From an uncultured Actinomycetes bacterium (GTDB lineage: Bacteria > Actinomycetota > Thermoleophilia > Solirubrobacterales > 70-9), in NCBI GenBank assembly GCA_963724745.1, contig CAVRVU010000002.1:94714-158713 (forward strand): a stretch of DNA of 64,000 nucleotides. The letters are read 5' to 3'. Shown piece after piece: positions 14,575 to 46,654 of this stretch. Under the pieces are notes generated by a model. That model was not told the origin of the DNA and searched no databases. It saw nothing but the letters and a program-made list of their open reading frames with translations. Every line of letters begins with the position of its first letter. The stretch's first letter is position 1. The translations under genes and the position numbers were made by a program.

Positions 14575-15375
14575 TCAGCCGGTGACCCCTTTCACCACCG
14601 GGTAATAACCACTGGCGTGACCGGTGACCTTCGGGTGGTAGCTTTCGCCGACCGGGTTGGAAAGGCCGTTGATCCACTCCGTTGAGGAGCCGCCTCCGCC
14701 GTCGCACACGGCGTGACCGATAAAGGGCGGAATCACGTCGCGGAAGACGAAGTTCGCCCCCGCTCTGCCTGCCGCCGCGCTGACCACGTTCTTCAGCTGG
14801 TCGGCCGTCTGGTTCAGTCGCGTCATCTCGCTGCTGCTGAACCAGGTGAGCGCGTTGCAGTCGGTGCCGTTGAACAGGCGCGGGTAGTCGAGGACGACCA
14901 CTTTCGCGCTCGGCGCCCGCGACCTGATCGCGTTGTTGACCAGGTCGAGCCGGCCCGGCAGCGTGTTCGCGATGTAGGACTGGGCGGTGTTGATCGCCCC
15001 TTCGCAGTTCGATGCCCACGAAGGCAGCGCACATTCGGTGATCACGCTCGAGAAACCGGCGTCGTTGCCGCCGATCGTGTAGGTGACCCAGTTGGTATCC
15101 GAGGTCACACTGTTTACCTGGGTGTTGATCACGTCGCCGGTCTTCGCCCCCGAGCAGGTGGCGTTGACGAACGTCCATTCTGGATGGGCGTTGTGCAACA
15201 GGTACGGGTACGCGTAGACCGACCGTTGACAGGTCGATTCGTAGAACGTCCGCGTTCCCGTGCCCGACGAGTAGGAGTCCCCGAGCGCGACGTACTTGAC
15301 CGCCAGCGCCGGACTGGCGAACAGCAGGCAGAAAGCCAGCACGCAGAGGGCTGCTGAGATGCGCCTCCCCTTCAT
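14575..15375 (-). CDS. Secreted SGNH/GDSL hydrolase (lipase/esterase)
   Basis: Signal peptide ALCVLAFCLLFASPALA followed by YVALGDSYSSG (block I), GGND (block III) and a C-terminal ...GHA... region. Confidence 0.85.
   Translation of the reverse strand: MKGRRISAALCVLAFCLLFASPALAVKYVALGDSYSSGTGTRTFYESTCQRSVYAYPYLLHNAHPEWTFVNATCSGAKTGDVINTQVNSVTSDTNWVTYTIGGNDAGFSSVITECALPSWASNCEGAINTAQSYIANTLPGRLDLVNNAIRSRAPSAKVVVLDYPRLFNGTDCNALTWFSSSEMTRLNQTADQLKNVVSAAAGRAGANFVFRDVIPPFIGHAVCDGGGGSSTEWINGLSNPVGESYHPKVTGHASGYYPVVKGVTG

Positions 15376-16342: not shown

Positions 16343-16346
<4 letters not shown>
15474..16346 (-). CDS. Sensor histidine kinase (short N-terminal TM pair, HisKA, HATPase_c)
   Basis: H-box AAVSHDLRTPL. 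N-box LFNLIRNAIRHT. G-boxes DTGDGIP and GAGLGLA. ATGA overlap with the upstream response regulator. Confidence 0.85.
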
Positions 16347-17067
<721 letters not shown>

Positions 17068-17071
<4 letters not shown>

Positions 17072-18807
17072 CCGAAGGTGAAGGCGTAACCGGAGATCCT
17101 CGGAGCGAATTCCAGGCTGAGGAGGTGGTGCTGGGCGCTCGGCAGTTCGACCAGGCGATAGAGGCGCTGGCGCTCGATCGTCGCGACGCCGTCCTGGACA
17201 TCGGTCCCGGCGAAGCGCTGCGGCAGCGGCTTGCCGTCGAGCAGGACCCGCAGCGGCCGCGGCTCGCCGCCGCGCGAGCCGAGCACGAGGAACACCTTGC
17301 GGGCGCCGAAGTCGAGGTCGAGGCGGGCGCCGGCGAGCGCGGTGGCACCGTCGAACCCGATCCGCCAGCGCCCCTCGTAGGCGAGGCCGTCGGGCGGCAC
17401 TTCGGCGGCGGAGGCCTGAAAGTTCTGGGTCCCGGCCGCGATCGAGCCGTTGACGAAGCGCAGCGCCCGGCCGGCGCCGAGGTAGCTCTCCGGCGTGGTC
17501 ACCCCGGCCGAAGCGGTCTCGGCGTGTGCCTCCGCGCGCCCGGCGCCGGGCCGGTGTCCCGATTCGGCCAGCAGCTCACGGATCGCCGCCTCGGTCTCGC
17601 CGTATTCGCCCTCGCCGAAGTGGGCGTAGCGGACCCGACCCTCGGCGTCGATCAGGTACTTCGCCGGCCAGTACTGGTTCGCGTAGGCGTTCCAGGTCGC
17701 GAGGTCGTTGTCCTGGACGACGGGATATTCGATGTGGTTCTGGGCGATCGCATCGGCGACGTTGCCGGCCTCGCGCTCAAATGGGAACTCAGGGCTGTGG
17801 ACGCCGACGATCGTCAGCCCGCGGTCGCGGTATCGCCTGTCCCAGGCGGTCACCTCGGGCAGGGTGCGGATGCAGTTGATGCAGGTGTAGGTCCAGAAAT
17901 CGACCAGGACGACGCGCCCGCGCAGCCCACGCAGGGTCAGCGGCCGGTCGCCGGGCGTGTTGAACCACTGCTGGGTGCCGGTGAATTCAGGCGCCGTACC
18001 CAGCACCGGCAGCCTGGCGCCGTCCGGTTCCTCGCTCGAGGCGGCGCGGCTGCCGACGCCGCCGTGGACGGTGCGCAGTCGGGCCAGCTGATCGCGGACA
18101 TCGCCGTTCTCCTCGAGGTCCTTGGTCGGGTTGACGAGGACGGCGGGCAGGTCGCTGGCGATCGCGGTCTGGAAGCGGGTGTCGTAGTCGCCGGCCATCA
18201 GCAGGGCGACGATCACCATCACCGCGCCGGTCGCCATCTGCAACCGCCCCGCCTGCGGCGCCAGCCGGGCGATCAGCTTGCGCCCGCCGAGCAGGAGGAA
18301 GTAGAGGACGACGGCGCTGCCGGCCGTGTAGGAGAGCGCCACCGCGAGGCGGCCGGCAGTGAAGGACTGCGAGGCGGAGACGGTGATCACCCCGGCCAGG
18401 ATCGGCCCGGCGCAGGGCGCGTAAACGAAGCCGAGGCTGCCGCCGAGCAGAAGTCCGGAGCGGAACCCGTCGCCGCTGCCGGCCCGCGGCGCCGGCACCA
18501 CCCGGCTGATCCGGGCCTCGATCCGAGCGGCGACCGGCGGCATCAACAGCGAGATCCCGAAGCCGAGCAGCACCGCGATCGCCAGGTTGCGCAGCAGGTC
18601 GCCAGGCAGGCCGAGGGCGTCGATCACGTAGACGAGCGCCACCGTGGCGAAGGCGAAGGACAGCGCCAGCCCGGTGACGACGCCGAGCGGCCGCCGCCGG
18701 CCCCCGGTCACCCCGGCCGAGAGCGCCACCGGCAGCACCGGCAGGACGCAGGGGGAAAGCGCCGTCGCCGCCCCGGCCACGAACGCGAATGCCATCAGCG
18801 CGACCAC
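17068..18807 (-). CDS. dipZ: Cytochrome c biogenesis CcdA/DsbD-type membrane domain fused to a thioredoxin-like domain and a C-terminal beta domain (DipZ-like)
   Basis: LSPCVLPVLPV and YAPCAGPIL TM cysteines. Redoxin motif VLVDFWTYTCINCIRTLP. Confidence 0.75.
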
Positions 18808-18892
18808 GTCAGAGACTCTGGCAGGCGGCGCTTACGAATCCCTTACAAGCGTGAAACCCATGTCCAAAGCCGTGTGGGAACGGGGCGTCGGT

Positions 18893-21800
18893 CTAGCCGG
18901 CAGCGTGATCCGCTGCCCACACTCCGAGTGGTTCGATCTCACTCCAGCTGTAGTTGCTGTGTTCGCTGGTCCACGACCCAAGGCCAGGGGCGCAAACGAT
19001 GTCGTTGTTATGGCAGTAGGCGATGGTACGACCAGCTACCGACGAGGGGATAACGGCAGTGCCCCCGTGTCCGAACGCCATCGTGTAGATCCCGTCCGCT
19101 GAGGTCGCCGCCGATCCCCACTTGGTCACGCCGTTGTCATCACCTCGAGCCTCCGGGTCAGCCAACAGGACTACGGCCGAAACATGGGAGAGATCGGCGG
19201 AGGACATCAACTCGCTGAGAGCAAGGTGGATGGCGAGCGCCCCCTGCGAGTATCCAGCGAGAACGATCTTCTCTGAAGGGCATGCTTCGCTCTCTTGGTG
19301 GACACCCAGGGCGATGTCGAGTGCACCTTCCCAAAAGCTTTCTTCGAATTCGAGATAGGAGTTGCCGAAGATGGCTCCCCAGGGACCCGGAACCGGCAGC
19401 GCCGGATATCGCAATCCAAAGCCCCGGACGGTCGACCCCGGGCTCAGCTTTTCGAATTCTTCGCGGAAGGCAAAGAAAATGCCCGGGATACGTGATCCCA
19501 TGTTCGCGCTCTCCGTCGAGCTGTAGGTTTCGCCGACTAGCGGGGCCTCACCCGAACCTCGAACTCCTACGAACAACGCAGTCGCGCAGTCCCCGGAAGG
19601 CGATTGGGGTTGCGGGGTGACAGCGGGCATCGGCGGAGGGCTCCACCCAACCCACGGAACTACCATCGGACCATCCCCTTGGATGGGGGTTCCTTGTCCC
19701 CCTGGCGCTGGACCGGAAGGCGAACCCCAATCGACATGGGTGGCATCAACCCAGGTATTGGCAGAGACCCCTACGGTTGAGTGCAGGATCGCGCCATGGA
19801 TCGCGACATCGTTGCCATCCGCGACGTAGAGGGCGGTAGAGGCGTACTCCAAGGTCGTGCCAAGAAGGTGTGCCGATCCGCCGGACACGACGTAGATGCC
19901 GCCCCAGTCGCCGGCGAGCGGCGCGGTGGCGTTGCCGTCGCCGTTGGTGTCGCCGCCGACGGTGTCGTCGCGCCAGGAGGTGAAGGCGACCGGGCTGGCG
20001 CCGGTGCCGTTGGCCTCGAGGGTGCCCTGGACGACGACTTCGCCGCCGCAGTTGGCGAAGGCCTTGACGATCGTGCCGGCGCCGAGGGTGAGCTTGATCC
20101 CCGGCGGGATCGTCAGCGAGCCGCAGCCGCCGGAGAGCACCGGCACCAGGTTGCCCGACCAGGGCAGCGAGGAGCTGACGGCGAGGGTGTCGGCGCCGAG
20201 CCGCACCCCGTTCAGGCCGTTGGCCGAGCCCGAGTTGCCGTCGAGGGCGCCCATGTCGAGGGAGGCGTTGTAGATGCTGATCGCGTTGCCGGCGACTTTG
20301 GTGACGGTGTTGCCGGTGAGCGTCGGGATGCCGAGCGGGGAGTTGACGGCGATGCCGTCGCCCTGGGCCTTTTCGATCGTCGAGTTGGTGATCGAGGTGG
20401 TGGCCGAGCTCGCCTGCAGGGGCGAGGAGGCGTAGGCGACCTTGACGTGGTCGAGGTCGAGGGTCGGGTTGGGGTTGCCGTTGCCGGCGGGGCTGGTGTA
20501 GATGCCGCCCCAGTCGCCGGCGAGCGGCGCGGTGGCGTTGCCGTCGCCGTTGGTGTCGCCGCCGACGGTGTCGTCGCGCCAGGAGGTGAAGGCGACCGGG
20601 CTGGCGCCGGTGCCGTTGGCCTCGAGGGTGCCCTGGACGACGACTTCGCCGCCGCAGTTGGCGAAGGCCTTGACGATCGTGCCGGCGCCGAGGGTGAGCT
20701 TGATCCCCGGCGGGATCGTCAGCGAGCCGCAGCCGCCGGAGAGCACCGGCACCAGGTTGCCCGACCAGGGCAGCGAGGAGCTGACGGCGAGGGTGTCGGC
20801 GCCGAGCCGCACCCCGTTCAGGCCGTTGGCCGAGCCCGAGTTGCCGTCGAGGGCGCCCATGTCGAGGGAGGCGTTGTAGATGCTGATCGCGTTGCCGGCG
20901 ACTTTGGTGACGGTGTTGCCGGTGAGCGTCGGGATGCCGAGCGGGGAGTTGACGGCGATGCCGTCGCCCTGGGCCTTTTCGATCGTCGAGTTGGTGATCG
21001 AGGTGGTGGCCGAGCTCGCCTGCAGGGGCGAGGAGGCGTAGGCGACCTTGACGTGGTCGAGGTCGAGGGTCGGGTTGGGGTTGCCGTTGCCGGCGGGGCT
21101 GGTGTAGATGCCGCCCCAGTCGCCGGCGAGCGGCGCGGTGGCGTTGCCGTCGCCGTTGGTGTCGCCGCCGACGGTGTCGTCGCGCCAGGAGGTGAAGGCG
21201 ACCGGGCTGGCGCCGGTGCCGTTGGCCTCGAGGGTGCCCTGGACGACGACTTCGCCGCCGCAGTTGGCGAAGGCCTTGACGATCGTGCCGGCGCCGAGGG
21301 TGAGCTTGATCCCCGGCGGGATCGTCAGCGAGCCGCAGCCGCCGGAGAGCACCGGCACCAGGTTGCCCGACCAGGGCAGCGAGGAGCTGACGGCGAGGGT
21401 GTCGGCGCCGAGCCGCACCCCGTTCAGGCCGTTGGCCGAGCCCGAGTTGCCGTCGAGGGCGCCCATGTCGAGGGAGGCGTTGTAGATGCTGATCGCGTTG
21501 CCGGCGACTTTGGTGACGGTGTTGCCGGTGAGCGTCGGGATGCCGAGCGGGGAGTTGACGGCGATGCCGTCGCCCTGGGCCTTTTCGATCGTCGAGTTGG
21601 TGATCGAGGTGGTGGCCGAGCTCGCCTGCAGGGGCGAGGAGGCGTAGGCGACCTTGACGTGGTCGAGGTCGAGGGTCGGGTTGGGGTTGCCGTTGCCGGC
21701 GGGGCTGGTGTAGATGCCGCCCCAGTCGCCGGCGAGCGGCGCGGTGGCGTTGCCGTCGCCGTTGGTGTCGCCGCCGACGGTGTCGTCGCGCCAGGAGGTG

Positions 21801-24800
21801 AAGGCGACCGGGCTGGCGCCGGTGCCGTTGGCCTCGAGGGTGCCCTGGACGACGACTTCGCCGCCGCAGTTGGCGAAGGCCTTGACGATCGTGCCGGCGC
21901 CGAGGGTGAGCTTGATCCCCGGCGGGATCGTCAGCGAGCCGCAGCCGCCGGAGAGCACCGGCACCAGGTTGCCCGACCAGGGCAGCGAGGAGCTGACGGC
22001 GAGGGTGTCGGCGCCGAGCCGCACCCCGTTCAGGCCGTTGGCCGAGCCCGAGTTGCCGTCGAGGGCGCCCATGTCGAGGGAGGCGTTGTAGATGCTGATC
22101 GCGTTGCCGGCGACTTTGGTGACGGTGTTGCCGGTGAGCGTCGGGATGCCGAGCGGGGAGTTGACGGCGATGCCGTCGCCCTGGGCCTTTTCGATCGTCG
22201 AGTTGGTGATCGAGGTGGTGGCCGAGCTCGCCTGCAGGGGCGAGGAGGCGTAGGCGACCTTGACGTGGTCGAGGTCGAGGGTCGGGTTGGGGTTGCCGTT
22301 GCCGGCGGGGCTGGTGTAGATGCCGCCCCAGTCGCCGGCGAGCGGCGCGGTGGCGTTGCCGTCGCCGTTGGTGTCGCCGCCGACGGTGTCGTCGCGCCAG
22401 GAGGTGAAGGCGACCGGGCTGGCGCCGGTGCCGTTGGCCTCGAGGGTGCCCTGGACGACGACTTCGCCGCCGCAGTTGGCGAAGGCCTTGACGATCGTGC
22501 CGGCGCCGAGGGTGAGCTTGATCCCCGGCGGGATCGTCAGCGAGCCGCAGCCGCCGGAGAGCACCGGCACCAGGTTGCCCGACCAGGGCAGCGAGGAGCT
22601 GACGGCGAGGGTGTCGGCGCCGAGCCGCACCCCGTTCAGGCCGTTGGCCGAGCCCGAGTTGCCGTCGAGGGCGCCCATGTCGAGGGAGGCGTTGTAGATG
22701 CTGATCGCGTTGCCGGCGACTTTGGTGACGGTGTTGCCGGTGAGCGTCGGGATGCCGAGCGGGGAGTTGACGGCGATGCCGTCGCCCTGGGCCTTTTCGA
22801 TCGTCGAGTTGGTGATCGAGGTGGTGGCCGAGCTCGCCTGCAGGGGCGAGGAGGCGTAGGCGACCTTGACGTGGTCGAGGTCGAGGGTCGGGTTGGGGTT
22901 GCCGTTGCCGGCGGGGCTGGTGTAGATGCCGCCCCAGTCGCCGGCGAGCGGCGCGGTGGCGTTGCCGTCGCCGTTGGTGTCGCCGCCGACGGTGTCGTCG
23001 CGCCAGGAGGTGAAGGCGACCGGGCTGGCGCCGGTGCCGTTGGCCTCGAGGGTGCCCTGGACGACGACTTCGCCGCCGCAGTTGGCGAAGGCCTTGACGA
23101 TCGTGCCGGCGCCGAGGGTGAGCTTGATCCCCGGCGGGATCGTCAGCGAGCCGCAGCCGCCGGAGAGCACCGGCACCAGGTTGCCCGACCAGGGCAGCGA
23201 GGAGCTGACGGCGAGGGTGTCGGCGCCGAGCCGCACCCCGTTCAGGCCGTTGGCCGAGCCCGAGTTGCCGTCGAGGGCGCCCATGTCGAGGGAGGCGTTG
23301 TAGATGCTGATCGCGTTGCCGGCGACTTTGGTGACGGTGTTGCCGGTGAGCGTCGGGATGCCGAGCGGGGAGTTGACGGCGATGCCGTCGCCCTGGGCCT
23401 TTTCGATCGTCGAGTTGGTGATCGAGGTGGTGGCCGAGCTCGCCTGCAGGGGCGAGGAGGCGTAGGCGACCTTGACGTGGTCGAGGTCGAGGGTCGGGTT
23501 GGGGTTGCCGTTGCCGGCGGGGCTGGTGTAGATGCCGCCCCAGTCGCCGGCGAGCGGCGCGGTGGCGTTGCCGTCGCCGTTGGTGTCGCCGCCGACGGTG
23601 TCGTCGCGCCAGGAGGTGAAGGCGACCGGGCTGGCGCCGGTGCCGTTGGCCTCGAGGGTGCCCTGGACACCGATACTTCGTCCCTGCTGCAGCTTGACGA
23701 TCGCGCCGTCTTCAACTTCGAGCGTCGCCCCTTCAGCTACGAAGACATCGCACGTAACTACATAGTGCTTGGCGAATCTCGGCCCAATCTTCTGGTCCTG
23801 CGATATCTCACCGCAAAGAGAGAGCTCGGGGCTCACCGAGTCCCACGAGTAGGTAGCGCCGGCTGGATCGATATTGCCCGCAGAGTCAACCGCCTTAACG
23901 ACCAGCGCGTGCGGTCCGGGCTCCGGATCGGTGATTTCGTAGGGAGTGGGACACGAGCTCGCGGTCGCTCCATCCAAACTGCATAGGAAGGTCGCTCCCG
24001 AGTCTCCACTCGAGAACTCGAAGCTGACCGGCCCCGGGCCGATGGCTCCTTCAGGGCCATCGCCTTTCGTCGTCTGCGGCGGCGCCGTGTCGACCGTCCA
24101 GCTCGCTTGAGCCGGGCTGGCGTCGGTGTTGCCGGCGGGGTCCTTGGCCCGGACTTCGACGCTGTGAGGACCGTCGGCGAGTGGGTTGTAGGTCTTGGGG
24201 CTTGCGCATGGCTGCCAGCCGGCGGCGTCGAGGTTGCATTCGAAGCTGCCGGCCGCCTCGCTGGACGTGAAGGACAAGCCAGACTGCGGGTTGTTGGTTG
24301 GGCTCGCAGGACTGCTTCCGATCGTCGTCTGCGGCGCCGCCGTGTCGACCGTCCAGCTCGCTTGAGCCGGGCTGGCGTCGGTGTTGCCGGCGGGGTCCTT
24401 GGCCCGGACTTCGACGCTGTGAGGACCGTCGGCGAGTGGGTTGTAGGTCTTGGGGCTCGCGCATGGCTGCCAGCCGGCGGCGTCGAGGTTGCATTCGAAG
24501 CTGCCGGCCGCCTCGCTGGACGTGAAGGACAAGCCAGACTGCGGGTTGTTGGTTGGGCTCGCAGGACTGCTTCCGATCGTCGTCTGCGGCGCCGCCGTGT
24601 CGACCGTCCAGCTCGCTTGAGCCGGGGTCTGGTCTATGAGTTCGCCGGCGACCGCCCTCACCTCGAATTCATACGGGCCGTCCGCAAGCGAGCTGTACTG
24701 AGCAGGGCTGGCGCAATTGGACCAAGCGGAGCCAACAAAACTGCACTCGAAGGTGGCGCCAGGAGGGTTCGAGTGAAATGAAAAGCTGCTGTCCCTTTCC

Positions 24801-25288
24801 CTAATCGGACCCGATGATCCGCTATCGATCAGGGTGTCAGGGGGCGTCGGGGTGGGGGGAGCTGGGCTTGGTGGAGGCTGCGGCGTCGAACCGGTTGCGG
24901 GAGGGGTCGGAGGAGAGCTCGGGTTCTCCGGACTCTCGCCTTTTTCTTTCGCCTTTGCCTTCGCTCTGCCGATGCAACGCTGTTTGGCTTTTCGTTGCTT
25001 CTTACTTTTTCCAGAAAATTTCTGCTGGCATTTCTTGACCTGAGCTTTGACGCTTGAAGCCGAGGATCTAGCCGTCGGAGTCGTTGCCCCAAACGTTGCG
25101 CCGACGCCGATCACTGCGATCGCAGCAAGAACTGCACACAGCACAACGAGAGAACGCTTGGATAAATCGGTGGTCTTTCGAAATCCCCTGCCCTGAGTCA
25201 CCAGCCCAAGAACGCACAACGAGCGTCCCCTCTTTTGCCGTTCAAAGAATTTTGCAGCTGCACTCTCCGGTCCCTTGCCCTGCTTCAC
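18893..25288 (-). CDS. Giant secreted multidomain protein. Order: signal/anchor, Lys-rich segment, Pro-rich linker, 4 Cys-pair Ig-like domains, 7 right-handed beta-helix modules (202 aa each), C-terminal cutinase-type alpha/beta hydrolase.
   Basis: Single uninterrupted 2131-codon ORF. TM LVVLCAVLAAIAVIGVGA. FECNLDAAGWQPCASP domains. The module GTLEANGTGASPVAFTSWRDDTVGGDTNGDGNATAPLAGDWGGIY occurs 7 times. Cutinase nucleophile elbow GYSQGA with flanking Cys. The start codon is uncertain (GTG at 25288 or GTG near 25201). Confidence 0.85.
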   Translation of the reverse strand: MKQGKGPESAAAKFFERQKRGRSLCVLGLVTQGRGFRKTTDLSKRSLVVLCAVLAAIAVIGVGATFGATTPTARSSASSVKAQVKKCQQKFSGKSKKQRKAKQRCIGRAKAKAKEKGESPENPSSPPTPPATGSTPQPPPSPAPPTPTPPDTLIDSGSSGPIRERDSSFSFHSNPPGATFECSFVGSAWSNCASPAQYSSLADGPYEFEVRAVAGELIDQTPAQASWTVDTAAPQTTIGSSPASPTNNPQSGLSFTSSEAAGSFECNLDAAGWQPCASPKTYNPLADGPHSVEVRAKDPAGNTDASPAQASWTVDTAAPQTTIGSSPASPTNNPQSGLSFTSSEAAGSFECNLDAAGWQPCASPKTYNPLADGPHSVEVRAKDPAGNTDASPAQASWTVDTAPPQTTKGDGPEGAIGPGPVSFEFSSGDSGATFLCSLDGATASSCPTPYEITDPEPGPHALVVKAVDSAGNIDPAGATYSWDSVSPELSLCGEISQDQKIGPRFAKHYVVTCDVFVAEGATLEVEDGAIVKLQQGRSIGVQGTLEANGTGASPVAFTSWRDDTVGGDTNGDGNATAPLAGDWGGIYTSPAGNGNPNPTLDLDHVKVAYASSPLQASSATTSITNSTIEKAQGDGIAVNSPLGIPTLTGNTVTKVAGNAISIYNASLDMGALDGNSGSANGLNGVRLGADTLAVSSSLPWSGNLVPVLSGGCGSLTIPPGIKLTLGAGTIVKAFANCGGEVVVQGTLEANGTGASPVAFTSWRDDTVGGDTNGDGNATAPLAGDWGGIYTSPAGNGNPNPTLDLDHVKVAYASSPLQASSATTSITNSTIEKAQGDGIAVNSPLGIPTLTGNTVTKVAGNAISIYNASLDMGALDGNSGSANGLNGVRLGADTLAVSSSLPWSGNLVPVLSGGCGSLTIPPGIKLTLGAGTIVKAFANCGGEVVVQGTLEANGTGASPVAFTSWRDDTVGGDTNGDGNATAPLAGDWGGIYTSPAGNGNPNPTLDLDHVKVAYASSPLQASSATTSITNSTIEKAQGDGIAVNSPLGIPTLTGNTVTKVAGNAISIYNASLDMGALDGNSGSANGLNGVRLGADTLAVSSSLPWSGNLVPVLSGGCGSLTIPPGIKLTLGAGTIVKAFANCGGEVVVQGTLEANGTGASPVAFTSWRDDTVGGDTNGDGNATAPLAGDWGGIYTSPAGNGNPNPTLDLDHVKVAYASSPLQASSATTSITNSTIEKAQGDGIAVNSPLGIPTLTGNTVTKVAGNAISIYNASLDMGALDGNSGSANGLNGVRLGADTLAVSSSLPWSGNLVPVLSGGCGSLTIPPGIKLTLGAGTIVKAFANCGGEVVVQGTLEANGTGASPVAFTSWRDDTVGGDTNGDGNATAPLAGDWGGIYTSPAGNGNPNPTLDLDHVKVAYASSPLQASSATTSITNSTIEKAQGDGIAVNSPLGIPTLTGNTVTKVAGNAISIYNASLDMGALDGNSGSANGLNGVRLGADTLAVSSSLPWSGNLVPVLSGGCGSLTIPPGIKLTLGAGTIVKAFANCGGEVVVQGTLEANGTGASPVAFTSWRDDTVGGDTNGDGNATAPLAGDWGGIYTSPAGNGNPNPTLDLDHVKVAYASSPLQASSATTSITNSTIEKAQGDGIAVNSPLGIPTLTGNTVTKVAGNAISIYNASLDMGALDGNSGSANGLNGVRLGADTLAVSSSLPWSGNLVPVLSGGCGSLTIPPGIKLTLGAGTIVKAFANCGGEVVVQGTLEANGTGASPVAFTSWRDDTVGGDTNGDGNATAPLAGDWGGIYVVSGGSAHLLGTTLEYASTALYVADGNDVAIHGAILHSTVGVSANTWVDATHVDWGSPSGPAPGGQGTPIQGDGPMVVPWVGWSPPPMPAVTPQPQSPSGDCATALFVGVRGSGEAPLVGETYSSTESANMGSRIPGIFFAFREEFEKLSPGSTVRGFGLRYPALPVPGPWGAIFGNSYLEFEESFWEGALDIALGVHQESEACPSEKIVLAGYSQGALAIHLALSELMSSADLSHVSAVVLLADPEARGDDNGVTKWGSAATSADGIYTMAFGHGGTAVIPSSVAGRTIAYCHNNDIVCAPGLGSWTSEHSNYSWSEIEPLGVWAADHAAG
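19893..23666. repeat. Tandem direct repeat, 606-bp unit, about 6.2 copies, apparently identical at the nucleotide level, in frame inside the giant gene
   Basis: Identical translations recur with a 606-nt period in three different frames: the main minus-strand ORF, the plus-strand 1401-aa shadow ORF, and the 125-aa ORFs at 19896, 20502, 21108, 21714, 22320 and 22926. Sequence lines also match by eye. Confidence 0.9.
24068..24625. repeat. Tandem direct repeat, 255-bp unit (85 aa, one Ig-like domain), about 2.2 copies with one visible mismatch
   Basis: CGACCGTCCAGCTCGCTTGAGCCGG recurs at 24091, 24346 and 24601. The only mismatch seen is ggggctTgcgc versus ggggctCgcgc. Confidence 0.85.
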
Positions 25289-25468
25289 GGCGCGGAAGAC
25301 TAACGCCGAACTACGAACCTCGGCTTACTCAGTCGGAGTAATTTTCTGCTTGGCGCTGCAGCCTGTGCCGCCTCGCCCTCGATTGTTCCACGGCCAATAT
25401 CCCGCGGCGATCCCACGGGGCTCAAGCGCGAACACGCGCGCCCGCCTAAAAACAGAAAGGATGTGCGG

Positions 25469-42099: not shown

Positions 42100-42320
42100 G
42101 AGAGCCGACGCTGAAGAATGTGCATTCCCCAGGCCGTCACCGGCTTCTAACTGGCTAGCTGCCGGGTTTAGTGCAGGGGTGGAGAATCAGGCGTTCATCC
42201 GAAATTGACTAGTGCCGCAGATCCAGCTCCCCGTTCAGGCGGTTGCTGCCTGACAAAAGCGGGGTCGGCCATGCCACCTCCACGGGACCCCAACCGCCCA
42301 CTGCCATCAACTTCAAGAGG

Positions 42321-42394
42321 GGTGGCTGACGGGATTCGAACCCGCGACCGCCGCGACCACAACGCGGAGCTCTACCAGCTGAGCTACAGCCACC
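42321..42394 (-). tRNA. tRNA-His (GTG)
   Basis: The reverse complement folds as G(-1) GTGGCTG TA GCTC AGCTGGTA GAGC T CCGCG TTGTGGT CGCGG CGGTC GCGGG TTCGAAT CCCGT CAGCCAC C. CCA is not encoded. Confidence 0.92.
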
Positions 42395-45859: not shown

Positions 45860-46654
45860 CTAACGGTTGAGGCGAGCGAGGAGATCGCTCGTCATCGGGG
45901 TTGATTTGAAGAGGCCGCGCCTGGCGCCGGCGCGCATCTGGCGGCGGATCCCCCGCTCGACCAGGCCTTTGGGGACGAAGCGGAGCGCCGCGTAGGCGCG
46001 AGCGGCGCGCCTGGTCGTCGCGAGATCGCGGGTGGGCTTGCCGTAGAGGGCGCGGACGATCGTCTCGACCGCCGCGCTCAGCGGCTCCGGCGGCACCATC
46101 CCCTCGAGGCCGATGCCGGCGCTCTGGCTGGCGTCGTGGATCGGGGTGCGGATGTAGCCGGGGTAGACGGTGGTGACTGTGATCTCGTCGCCGACCTCCG
46201 AGCGCAGTTGCTCGGAGTAGCCGACGACGCCGCGCTTGCTGGCGCCGTAGGCGGTGGCGAAGGGCACCGCGATGTGGGCGAGGCCGGAGGAGATGTTGAC
46301 GACGCGGCCGTGGGAGGTGCGCAGCGCCGGCAGCGCCGCGGCCGTCGCCCGCCAGGTGCCGAGCAGGTTGACGTCGATGACGCGGAGCGCGTCGGGGCCG
46401 GGCCGTTCGGCGGCGCTCTGCGGCAGGCCGATGCCGGCGCAGTTGACGAGCGCGTCGAGCCCGCCCCCCAGCCGCTTCACCGCGGCGGCAACGCCGGCGT
46501 CGACGGAAGACTGGTCGGTGACGTCGCAGACGACGATGTCGTCCTCGCCCTTGAGGTCGAGCCCGACGACCTCGGCGCCGCGCTCACGCAGCGCCTTGGC
46601 GGTCGCCTCGCCGATGCCGCTGGCGGCGCCGGTGATGATCACGCGCTTGCTCAC
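45860..46654 (-). CDS. Short-chain dehydrogenase/reductase (classical SDR)
   Basis: VIITGAASGIG. NISSGLAH...YGASK catalytic motif. Confidence 0.85.
   Translation of the reverse strand: MSKRVIITGAASGIGEATAKALRERGAEVVGLDLKGEDDIVVCDVTDQSSVDAGVAAAVKRLGGGLDALVNCAGIGLPQSAAERPGPDALRVIDVNLLGTWRATAAALPALRTSHGRVVNISSGLAHIAVPFATAYGASKRGVVGYSEQLRSEVGDEITVTTVYPGYIRTPIHDASQSAGIGLEGMVPPEPLSAAVETIVRALYGKPTRDLATTRRAARAYAALRFVPKGLVERGIRRQMRAGARRGLFKSTPMTSDLLARLNR

Follow-up and report, generated by a model that had tools for sequence, protein, structure and literature searches.

How can one bacterial gene hold more than six copies of a 606-bp segment with no base changed between them, and what would such an array do for the protein? 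The question is raised by an open reading frame (ORF) of 2131 codons on the minus strand of contig CAVRVU010000002.1, from an uncultured actinomycete of the Solirubrobacterales; the stretch analyzed (below, the window, to which positions refer) is 64,000 nucleotides (nt) long. The predicted protein starts with a hydrophobic segment and Ig-like domains, continues with repeated modules of 202 amino acids (aa) and ends with a cutinase-type domain. With a probability of about 0.72, we read the locus as a genuine 606-bp coding array, recently amplified or continuously homogenised, in a surface-protein gene of the "stalk and cargo" sort, the stalk being variable as in the Periscope Proteins (Whelan et al. 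2021).

In a base-by-base comparison at lag 606, the array runs from 19892 to 23668 (3,777 bp) and contains 6.23 head-to-tail copies of the unit. The match is unbroken for every position from 19892 to 23062, with neither mismatch nor indel over the 3,171 positions compared; the 95% upper bound on the divergence between adjacent copies is ~0.1%. A separate repeat search finds the same six copies at 100%, the seventh position of the register (61%) being the N-cap that precedes the modules. Identity ends abruptly at both edges, and the flanks diverge immediately. The exact tandem repeat and the diverging edges of the sequence-only reading are therefore both present, and its location (19893-23666) is right but one or two bases short at each end. 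The unit corresponds to 3 × 202 codons, and the ORF (18893-25288) is uninterrupted across the array. The motif TSWRDD occurs seven times, as expected from the seven modules counted earlier, but there are really 6.23 units, namely six complete modules and the 47-aa start of a seventh that leads into the C-cap. As for the translations in three frames, their identity between copies is real but trivial, since the copies are nucleotide-identical. Tandem Repeats Finder reports only an 18-bp sub-period in the array because its longest period is 500. A 1401-aa ORF on the plus strand (19781-23986) overlaps the array and is a by-product of the high GC content and the repeat.

Each 202-aa module consists of a 47-aa segment A (QGTLEANGTGASPVAFTSWRDDTVGGDTNGDGNATAPLAGDWGGIY) followed by a 155-aa segment B. 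The basic form in the family is N-cap, (A-B), A', C-cap, where A (47 aa, ~140 bp) recurs, as A', at the start of the C-cap. No piece of the protein is more conserved than segment A (QGTL...TSWRDD..GGDTNGDG...GDWGGI), which has 94% aa identity to its counterpart in locus L003, a relative with 1.23 modules. In this single-module gene, A and A' (139 bp) are 100% identical. Direct repeats of ~140 bp, 606 bp apart, would offer a substrate for unequal homologous recombination or replication slippage, by which whole modules would be added or removed in frame. After a first duplication, whole 606-bp units could recombine, and the 606-bp homology would ease further change. Recombination between A' and the A of any unit would yield products with N.23 copies, and this is probably why the arrays, here and in relatives, have N + ~0.2 copies. 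Between the unit and its nearest relatives, the difference is 11-13%, against at most ~0.1% between copies; the array was therefore amplified, or homogenised for the last time, long after the split from those relatives.

Are such arrays found elsewhere in the family? A HMMER search with the last module, the caps and the cutinase domain as query yields 7,488 proteins at E ≤ 1e-3 (1,298 at E ≤ 1e-30). The survey set comprised the best 150 representatives, one per cluster at 50% identity. The cap motif is followed by one homologous cutinase tail in at least 49 of these best 150; with thousands of relatives, the architecture, which had been thought unusual, is common. Adjacent modules are at least 95% identical in 41 of the best 150, and most are 100% identical. 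In these near-identical arrays, the periods are mostly 177-289 aa and the copy numbers 2.3-7.3, nearly always N + 0.2-0.4. Across the representatives, the module count by hidden Markov model (HMM) goes from one to seven with no peak at six. A preferred length of seven motifs (as in the 2131-aa protein, L001, L002, P0002, and P0012) was dropped on that count. Except at their edges, the arrays of L005 (711 bp × 6.14), L006 (606 bp × 5.3) and L007 (783 bp × 4.2) are nucleotide-perfect. These contigs come from separate ENA assemblies and have Flye-style "contig_N" names, which would fit the idea that such arrays become visible with long reads.

Independent metagenomes contain the unit as well. Runs X45 and X25-X28 were compared with positions 18000-20640 and 23050-25400 of the window and 10000-13700 of L003. 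In X45, an unrelated soil metagenome of 2024 (Logan contigs), a 605-nt contig is 99.5% identical to the unit and runs from the end of the unit to its start; since it wraps on itself, the head-to-tail junction exists in nature. The depth of this contig is 4.1, and neither gene flank is assembled. The 20 kb of neighbouring single-copy DNA are represented in X45 by scattered contigs (96-99% identical, mean assembled depth ~0.5), and genome coverage is at most ~0.9×, allowing for unassembled singletons. The unit is ~4-8 times as abundant as single-copy DNA, a crude value compatible with six. In X25-X27, the L003-type unit forms a closed cycle of 636 nt (606 + 30, i.e., 606 + k-1) and, in X28, a near-cycle of 634 nt, with depths of 4.5-15.3 versus 2.4-5.2 for the flanking or genomic contigs. 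The depth ratio of cycle to flank goes from ~1.3× to 4× between metagenomes; these low, weak data hint at copy-number differences between populations. The early proposal of recent expansion, conversion or slippage in a length-variable surface protein fits both the recurrence of perfect arrays and the closed-cycle contigs of soil metagenomes.

The relatives also indicate what the array carries. The closest HMMER match, P0001 (1933 aa, 70% identity), shares the Lys-rich/Cys motif and the four Ig-like domains, and its cutinase follows 5.2 diverged modules. Among the loci of species-representative genomes, L003 and L004, in metagenome-assembled genomes (MAGs) of Solirubrobacterales, and L001 and L002, in MAGs of Actinomycetota, come closest. 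The closest relatives reach 70-71% aa identity overall and 87-89% nt identity in the module, and the module numbers of the homologues are 1.23 (L003), 5.2 (P0001) and 6.2 (L001, L002). The proteins of L001 and L002 (~3,350 aa) have Ig-like domains, six diverged 202-aa modules and a partial one (seven TSWRDD motifs with 202-aa spacing) and the same cap, with the motif DWGSPSGPAPGG...PWVGW, but then DUF6531 and RHS repeats instead of a cutinase. On the same stalk, DUF6531 occurs also in P0002, and DUF6531 with RHS in P0021. Different C-terminal cargoes are thus mounted on one common kind of stalk. In L001 and L002, the modules are 63-91% identical in nt, and modules within one protein are more alike than they are to the modules of the other protein, a hallmark of local duplication or conversion that has happened repeatedly. 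From the anchor up to and including the module, the 2131-aa protein is closest to L003 (59-94% aa), whereas the C-cap and the cutinase are closest to P0001 and P0007 (73-80% aa, with 74-80% for P0001 itself; only 39-55% for L003). The switch of nearest relative falls at A' (19892-20032), and the A segment looks like a junction for the exchange of cap and cargo as well.

The domain order first read from the translation is supported by Pfam, with matches to Beta_helix (1.3e-22), Cutinase (1.7e-17) and Big_13 (4e-13). The Beta_helix match falls on the 202-aa modules in six stretches, with NosD matching them also. An AlphaFold model based on an alignment of 13 sequences (mean predicted local distance difference test, pLDDT, of 80.3; 43.7 for the single-sequence model) contains, in its confident part, short strands in a regular pattern along the module and the caps. 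Each module would form several rungs of a right-handed beta-helix, so that more modules would mean a longer rigid rod. Together with the four Ig-like domains, the rod would hold the C-terminal cutinase-type esterase off the surface of the cell in which the N-terminus is anchored, so that the reach of the esterase would depend on module number.

The assignment of the cargo to the cutinase family is solid, with the predicted Ser-Asp-His triad and the disulphide cysteines in place. The match to PF01083 scores 64.3 bits (curated cut-off 25.9; E 1.7e-17). The Ser, the Asp and four Cys residues are invariant across 13 homologues. Sequence matches in the PDB are 4psc (the T. reesei cutinase) and 2czq (the Cryptococcus cutinase-like enzyme), and the alignment to both puts Ser and Asp in the correct positions. 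The catalytic Asp sits in a Cys-x3-Asp-x2-Cys loop. In Fusarium cutinase, the Asp is likewise within a Cys-x3-Asp-x2-Cys disulphide loop. With the C-terminal domain of the model, Foldseek retrieves 2axe, 2czq and 7cc4, with template-modelling (TM) scores of 0.72-0.79 on the target and E values of 3e-8 to 1e-5; CE5 acetyl-xylan esterases, cutinases and Rv3802c of M. tuberculosis are among the matches, and the best viral fold match is the mycobacteriophage Lysin B. Cutin or suberin, acetylated xylan and the envelope esters of a neighbour would all be compatible with the fold as substrate.

Several points weigh against reading the locus as a variable stalk. In fold searches with the AlphaFold model, significant matches occur for the cutinase domain only and none for a beta-helix, because the cutinase domain dominated the match lists. 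Of the two assignments in the sequence-only reading, the cutinase is thus confirmed by PF01083 and AlphaFold/Foldseek and the beta-helix by Pfam but not by the fold searches; the latter fold is the weaker assignment, suggested by Pfam and the short-strand pattern of the model. The length of the rod, ~3-4 nm per module and ~20 nm for six, is an estimate calculated from the geometry (~4.8 Å per rung and 6-7 rungs per module). Surface anchoring is suggested by one hydrophobic segment at the N-terminus, which could be either a signal peptide or a membrane anchor; no sortase LPXTG motif or wall-binding domain was identified in the 2131-aa protein by sequence, Pfam or NCBIfam. The number six is a count from the assembly alone and may be in error by a unit or two. 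The depth ratios are crude: the depths are low, Logan depths are flat means, and a conserved module is possibly common to several strains or genes. The JGI short-read contigs of the population of L003 (L009 and L010) break exactly inside A and A'. Finally, the definition of Periscope Proteins centres on copy-number variation between close strains; no strain-level relative is present among the species-representative genomes, the HMMER matches or the JGI metagenomes, and the homologues compared here for copy number are more distant. A search of the JGI metagenomes for a related locus returned no relative, and an exact search with a 33-nt pattern returned the L003 population itself and distant matches only. 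The homologue search with the cutinase domain gave fragments only (≤83% identical). No identical protein is on record for the 2131-aa protein or for the products of two neighbouring genes, and there is no synteny with L003 or P0001 outside the gene.

The array could be a product of assembly or polishing, with a real gene that has fewer, more or slightly different modules, the number of passes having been guessed and the copies equalised by polishing. A perfectly identical stretch of 3.8 kb is beyond the resolution of short reads, the contig breaks in L009 and L010, as against L003, mark the locus as hard to assemble, and the other perfect arrays examined all come from one ENA "contig_N" series, with a possible shared pipeline bias. 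However, the ORF is intact, without an indel across 3,777 bp. A single-base difference is kept in the adjacent 255-bp repeat of the Ig-like region, and therefore the assembly did not blur neighbouring copies there. The same pattern occurs, with varied unit lengths, in 41 of the best 150 representatives. In the independent short-read metagenomes, the unit-unit junction exists as a closed cycle deeper than the flanks (ratio of ~4-8 in X45). Because of the intact ORF, the retained mismatch and the closed cycles at raised depth (X45, X25-X28), the array is very probably biological and not an artefact of one assembly. We thus consider such an origin quite unlikely, although the evidence opposes a wholly artefactual array and not an error of one or two units.

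Quite improbable too is an old array, held identical by continuous gene conversion under selection, with a stable copy number functionally fixed at about six. The seven TSWRDD motifs at 202-aa spacing in both L001 and L002, matching the 2131-aa protein, would agree with it, as would the greater likeness of modules within one protein than between proteins and the 100% identity of A and A' even in the 1.23-copy gene of L003. Yet the module counts of one to seven among the representatives have no peak at six, and the closest full-length relatives contain 1.23 modules (L003) and 5.2 diverged ones (P0001). The absence of any difference in 3.2 kb requires very frequent conversion, and the same machinery would alter copy number. 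An old array shares its recombination mechanism with a recently amplified one, and one genome cannot separate the two. Very unlikely, lastly, are modules that serve as repeated substrate-binding or catalytic units (pectate-lyase/NosD-like) of a freely secreted degrader of plant polymers, amplified for avidity to an insoluble substrate: polysaccharide lyases and hydrolases are frequent in the Pfam Beta_helix and NosD superfamily, the cargo is a cutinase/acetyl-xylan-esterase-type domain, and a GDSL lipase gene is 3.5 kb away, but the same modules bear RHS toxins in relatives (which suits a presentation stalk more than a carbohydrate-active domain), no lyase or hydrolase catalytic motif was identified in the modules, their most conserved part is the loop-rich DTNGDG segment and not a groove, and the N-terminal hydrophobic, Lys-rich and Ig-like parts resemble the architecture of a surface protein.

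The features of the gene are collected in Table 1. The TTG codon is the likelier start, the listed GTG being probably too far upstream. The Ig-like domains repeat the motif F.C..D...W..C.SP...DG.H...V.A.D.AGN. In L003, there are six Ig-like domains instead of four, and therefore the Ig part of the stalk varies in number too.

Table 1. Features of the stalk and cargo gene (window positions; GC3, GC content at third codon positions)
Feature	Position	Strand	Basis or remark
ORF of 2131 codons with anchor, stalk and cutinase; GTG start as listed	18893-25288	-	Stop 18893-18895; GC3 0.86 in this frame
Alternative start TTG, residue 24 of the listed ORF	25217-25219	-	Shine-Dalgarno-like AAGAGGGGA precedes; protein of 2108 aa
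Hydrophobic segment SLVVLCAVLAAIAVIGVGATFGA, aa 46-68	25085-25153	-	Conserved in L003 and P0001
Lys-rich segment with two conserved Cys, KKCQQKFSGKSKKQRKAKQRC..., aa 81-117	24938-25048	-	Motif also in L003 and P0001
Pro-rich linker, aa 118-150	24839-24937	-	From sequence
Four Ig-like domains of ~85 aa each, Big_13/Y_Y_Y-like, aa 151-490	23819-24838	-	Pfam Big_13 4e-13
Second in-frame tandem repeat, 255 bp × 2.13, one mismatch (24203 vs. 24458)	24083-24626		Duplicates one Ig-like domain
Predicted beta-helix N-cap, LCGEISQDQK...QQGRSIG, aa 491-540 (50 aa), outside the repeat	23669-23818	-	Conserved in L003, L001, L002 and P0001
Array of 6.23 identical 606-bp units, aa 541-1799	19892-23668	-	Pfam Beta_helix, six stretches
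A' segment, 141-bp partial seventh unit starting the C-cap	19892-20032	-	Lag-606 test; edge and homologue comparisons
Predicted beta-helix C-cap, aa 1800-1882 (83 aa), ending in conserved DWGSPSGPAPGG...PWVGW	19643-19891	-	Invariant columns in 13-sequence alignment
Pro-rich linker SPPPMPAVTPQPQSPSGD, aa 1883-1900 (18 aa)	19589-19642	-	pLDDT <50 in AlphaFold model
Cutinase/CE5-type alpha/beta hydrolase domain, aa 1901-2131 (231 aa)	18896-19588	-	Pfam PF01083 1.7e-17
Putative nucleophile Ser in GYSQGA	19238-19255	-	Invariant in 13-homologue alignment
Putative catalytic Asp in NNDIVC, bracketed by two Cys	18992-19009	-	Invariant in 13-homologue alignment
Putative catalytic His in SEHSNY	18950-18967	-	Judged by eye

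Other matches to the protein (RecJ_OB and PE-PPE in Pfam; PxpA, OmpL47 and Ca_tandemer in NCBIfam) are weak, most of them under the curated cut-offs, and were rejected. At aa 589-675, RecJ_OB (1.1e-7) and PxpA (6e-13, far under its cut-off of 392) appear because weak scores per copy are summed over six identical modules, a caution for the automated annotation of perfect-repeat proteins.

Some homologues have surroundings or states of their own. In L005 (1-12411), the gene with the perfect array has an IS3-type transposase (HTH_Tnp_1 + rve) on one side and Tn7-like genes (tniQ, tniB, a Mu-type transposase and a resolvase) on the other, and a TIR_2 gene adjoins; therefore, at least some members of the family are in mobile or variable regions. 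In L007 (1-2721), SIR2_2 and SMC_N/AAA_15/AAA_23 genes adjoin the homologue, and the neighbourhood looks like a defence island. In L004 (10001-11857), the module is 88% identical in nt, and there is only a 465-aa ORF that starts inside the module and has a different, Cys-rich C-terminal domain without a Pfam match; a truncation or a frameshift may have affected this homologue. L012 (6029-6639) contains a frame-shifted cutinase fragment, 79% identical in nt to 18893-19495, which is an orphan with no stalk upstream and could be either what is left of a decayed gene end or a cargo cassette that was displaced. The 1.23 copies of L003 were first suspected to be a collapsed array; the MEGAHIT k141 contig passes the 139-bp repeat, which k=141 just resolves, and L003 is plausibly a true single module.

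The neighbours of the gene in the window are those of an ordinary chromosome (a DsbD-thioredoxin fusion, a response regulator, a GDSL lipase, a DEAD-box helicase-like protein, a P450 and other oxidoreductases). The downstream gene is a fusion of DsbD_TM, AhpC/TSA and Thioredoxin_10, followed by the response regulator and, farther, the GDSL lipase (14575-15375, 16343-18807). The DsbD fusion, a disulphide-handling protein, could matter for a secreted product in which conserved Cys pairs are numerous. Downstream of the cutinase gene, there is no immunity-like gene. Scans with Rfam and for tRNAs gave nothing that bears on the locus of the gene. Elsewhere in the window, ARAGORN and Rfam agree on a tRNA-His (42319-42393). 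ARAGORN also gives a 95-nt tRNA-Ala(cgc) at 45985-46079, which is not in the Rfam scan, lies inside the ORF 45860-46654 and is probably a false positive.

One may go further and see in the family a widespread, undescribed "adjustable-reach" display system of actinobacteria, in which the ~140-bp A segment would be a built-in recombination site that ratchets the stalk up and down in 202-aa steps and lets cap and cargo be swapped between esterases and RHS toxins, and the cutinase a contact-range weapon or tool. We regard this as unlikely. The cutinase could have as its target, for example in the manner of Lysin B, the envelopes of nearby actinobacteria that contain mycolates, or else polyester surfaces of fungi or plants, and the length of the stalk would be tuned to the distance of the target. 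Whatever its target, a cutinase-type cargo held on a stalk is of possible interest for the degradation of polyester or cutin and for enzyme display.

How does the gene compare with known systems? With the cutinase/CE5 enzymes, the C-terminal domain shares the fold and the nucleophile elbow GYSQGA, but sequence identity to known enzymes is only 17-24%. Those enzymes are secreted proteins of ~200 aa, or have short extra domains. We know of none that is carried at the tip of a 1,900-aa stalk.

The stalked polymorphic toxins (RHS/WapA and CdiA types of the filamentous-haemagglutinin, FHA, kind) are composed of an N-terminal trafficking part, a central filament and a variable C-terminal domain (Zhang et al. 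2012, PMC3482391). The tripartite layout is the same here, and relatives with the same stalk and cap bear DUF6531 and RHS. The mosaic breakpoint is, here, directly before the C-cap and cargo, and homologous stalks have differing C-termini (cutinase, RHS or one without a match). The degenerate, stalkless cutinase fragment in L012 is a further point of likeness. On the other hand, no toxin family matches the cargo, a cutinase-fold hydrolase, and the gene downstream, where an immunity gene would be expected for a toxin, is the DsbD_TM/AhpC-TSA/Thioredoxin_10 fusion. Cutinase is not named in the paper on polymorphic toxins (0 occurrences; PMC3482391). No HINT or other releasing peptidase is seen in the protein, and the stalk is made of 202-aa modules of predicted beta-helix, not of FHA or RHS repeats. 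The label of polymorphic toxin fits the modular logic of the family, not this gene.

The closest parallel is with Periscope Proteins (SasG/Aap, Rib, Sgo_0707 SHIRT, CdrA, and ShdA), in which the reach from the surface changes as repeats of very high identity are gained or lost (Whelan et al. 2021, PMC8201768; PMC9704523). Big_13, beta-helical PATR repeats and some enzymes with variable repeats are already listed in that class (PMC8201768, PMC9704523). With a unit of 202 aa, 100% identity and 6.23 copies, the present repeat is of the Periscope type. Common to both are a single-chain surface protein (here predicted), repeats of more than 50 aa with very high DNA identity, a rod (also predicted here) that projects a functional end domain, a proposed intragenic recombination and a repeat number that varies across the family. 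There are four differences. First, the topology is reversed, with a predicted N-terminal anchor, a C-terminal functional domain and no LPXTG. Second, the unit, at 202 aa, is predicted to be one block of an uninterrupted beta-helix, whereas in Periscope Proteins it is an independently folding domain of 50-165 aa. Third, the cargo, instead of an adhesin, is an esterase or, in relatives, an RHS toxin. Fourth, the host is a soil actinobacterium of uncultured type.

The phenomenon is thus already known; the family, the stalk module and the N + 0.2 geometry of recombination appear to be undescribed in the literature searched. In catalogues of soil MAGs, the length of such genes and their status as single genes are systematically under-reported because short-read assemblies break, and may collapse, them. 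Length-variable surface proteins with identical repeats have so far come almost all from pathogens sequenced with long reads. The same genetic behaviour is now met in abundant and barely studied Actinomycetota of soil, with a different stalk unit, a reversed topology and an enzyme or toxin as cargo.

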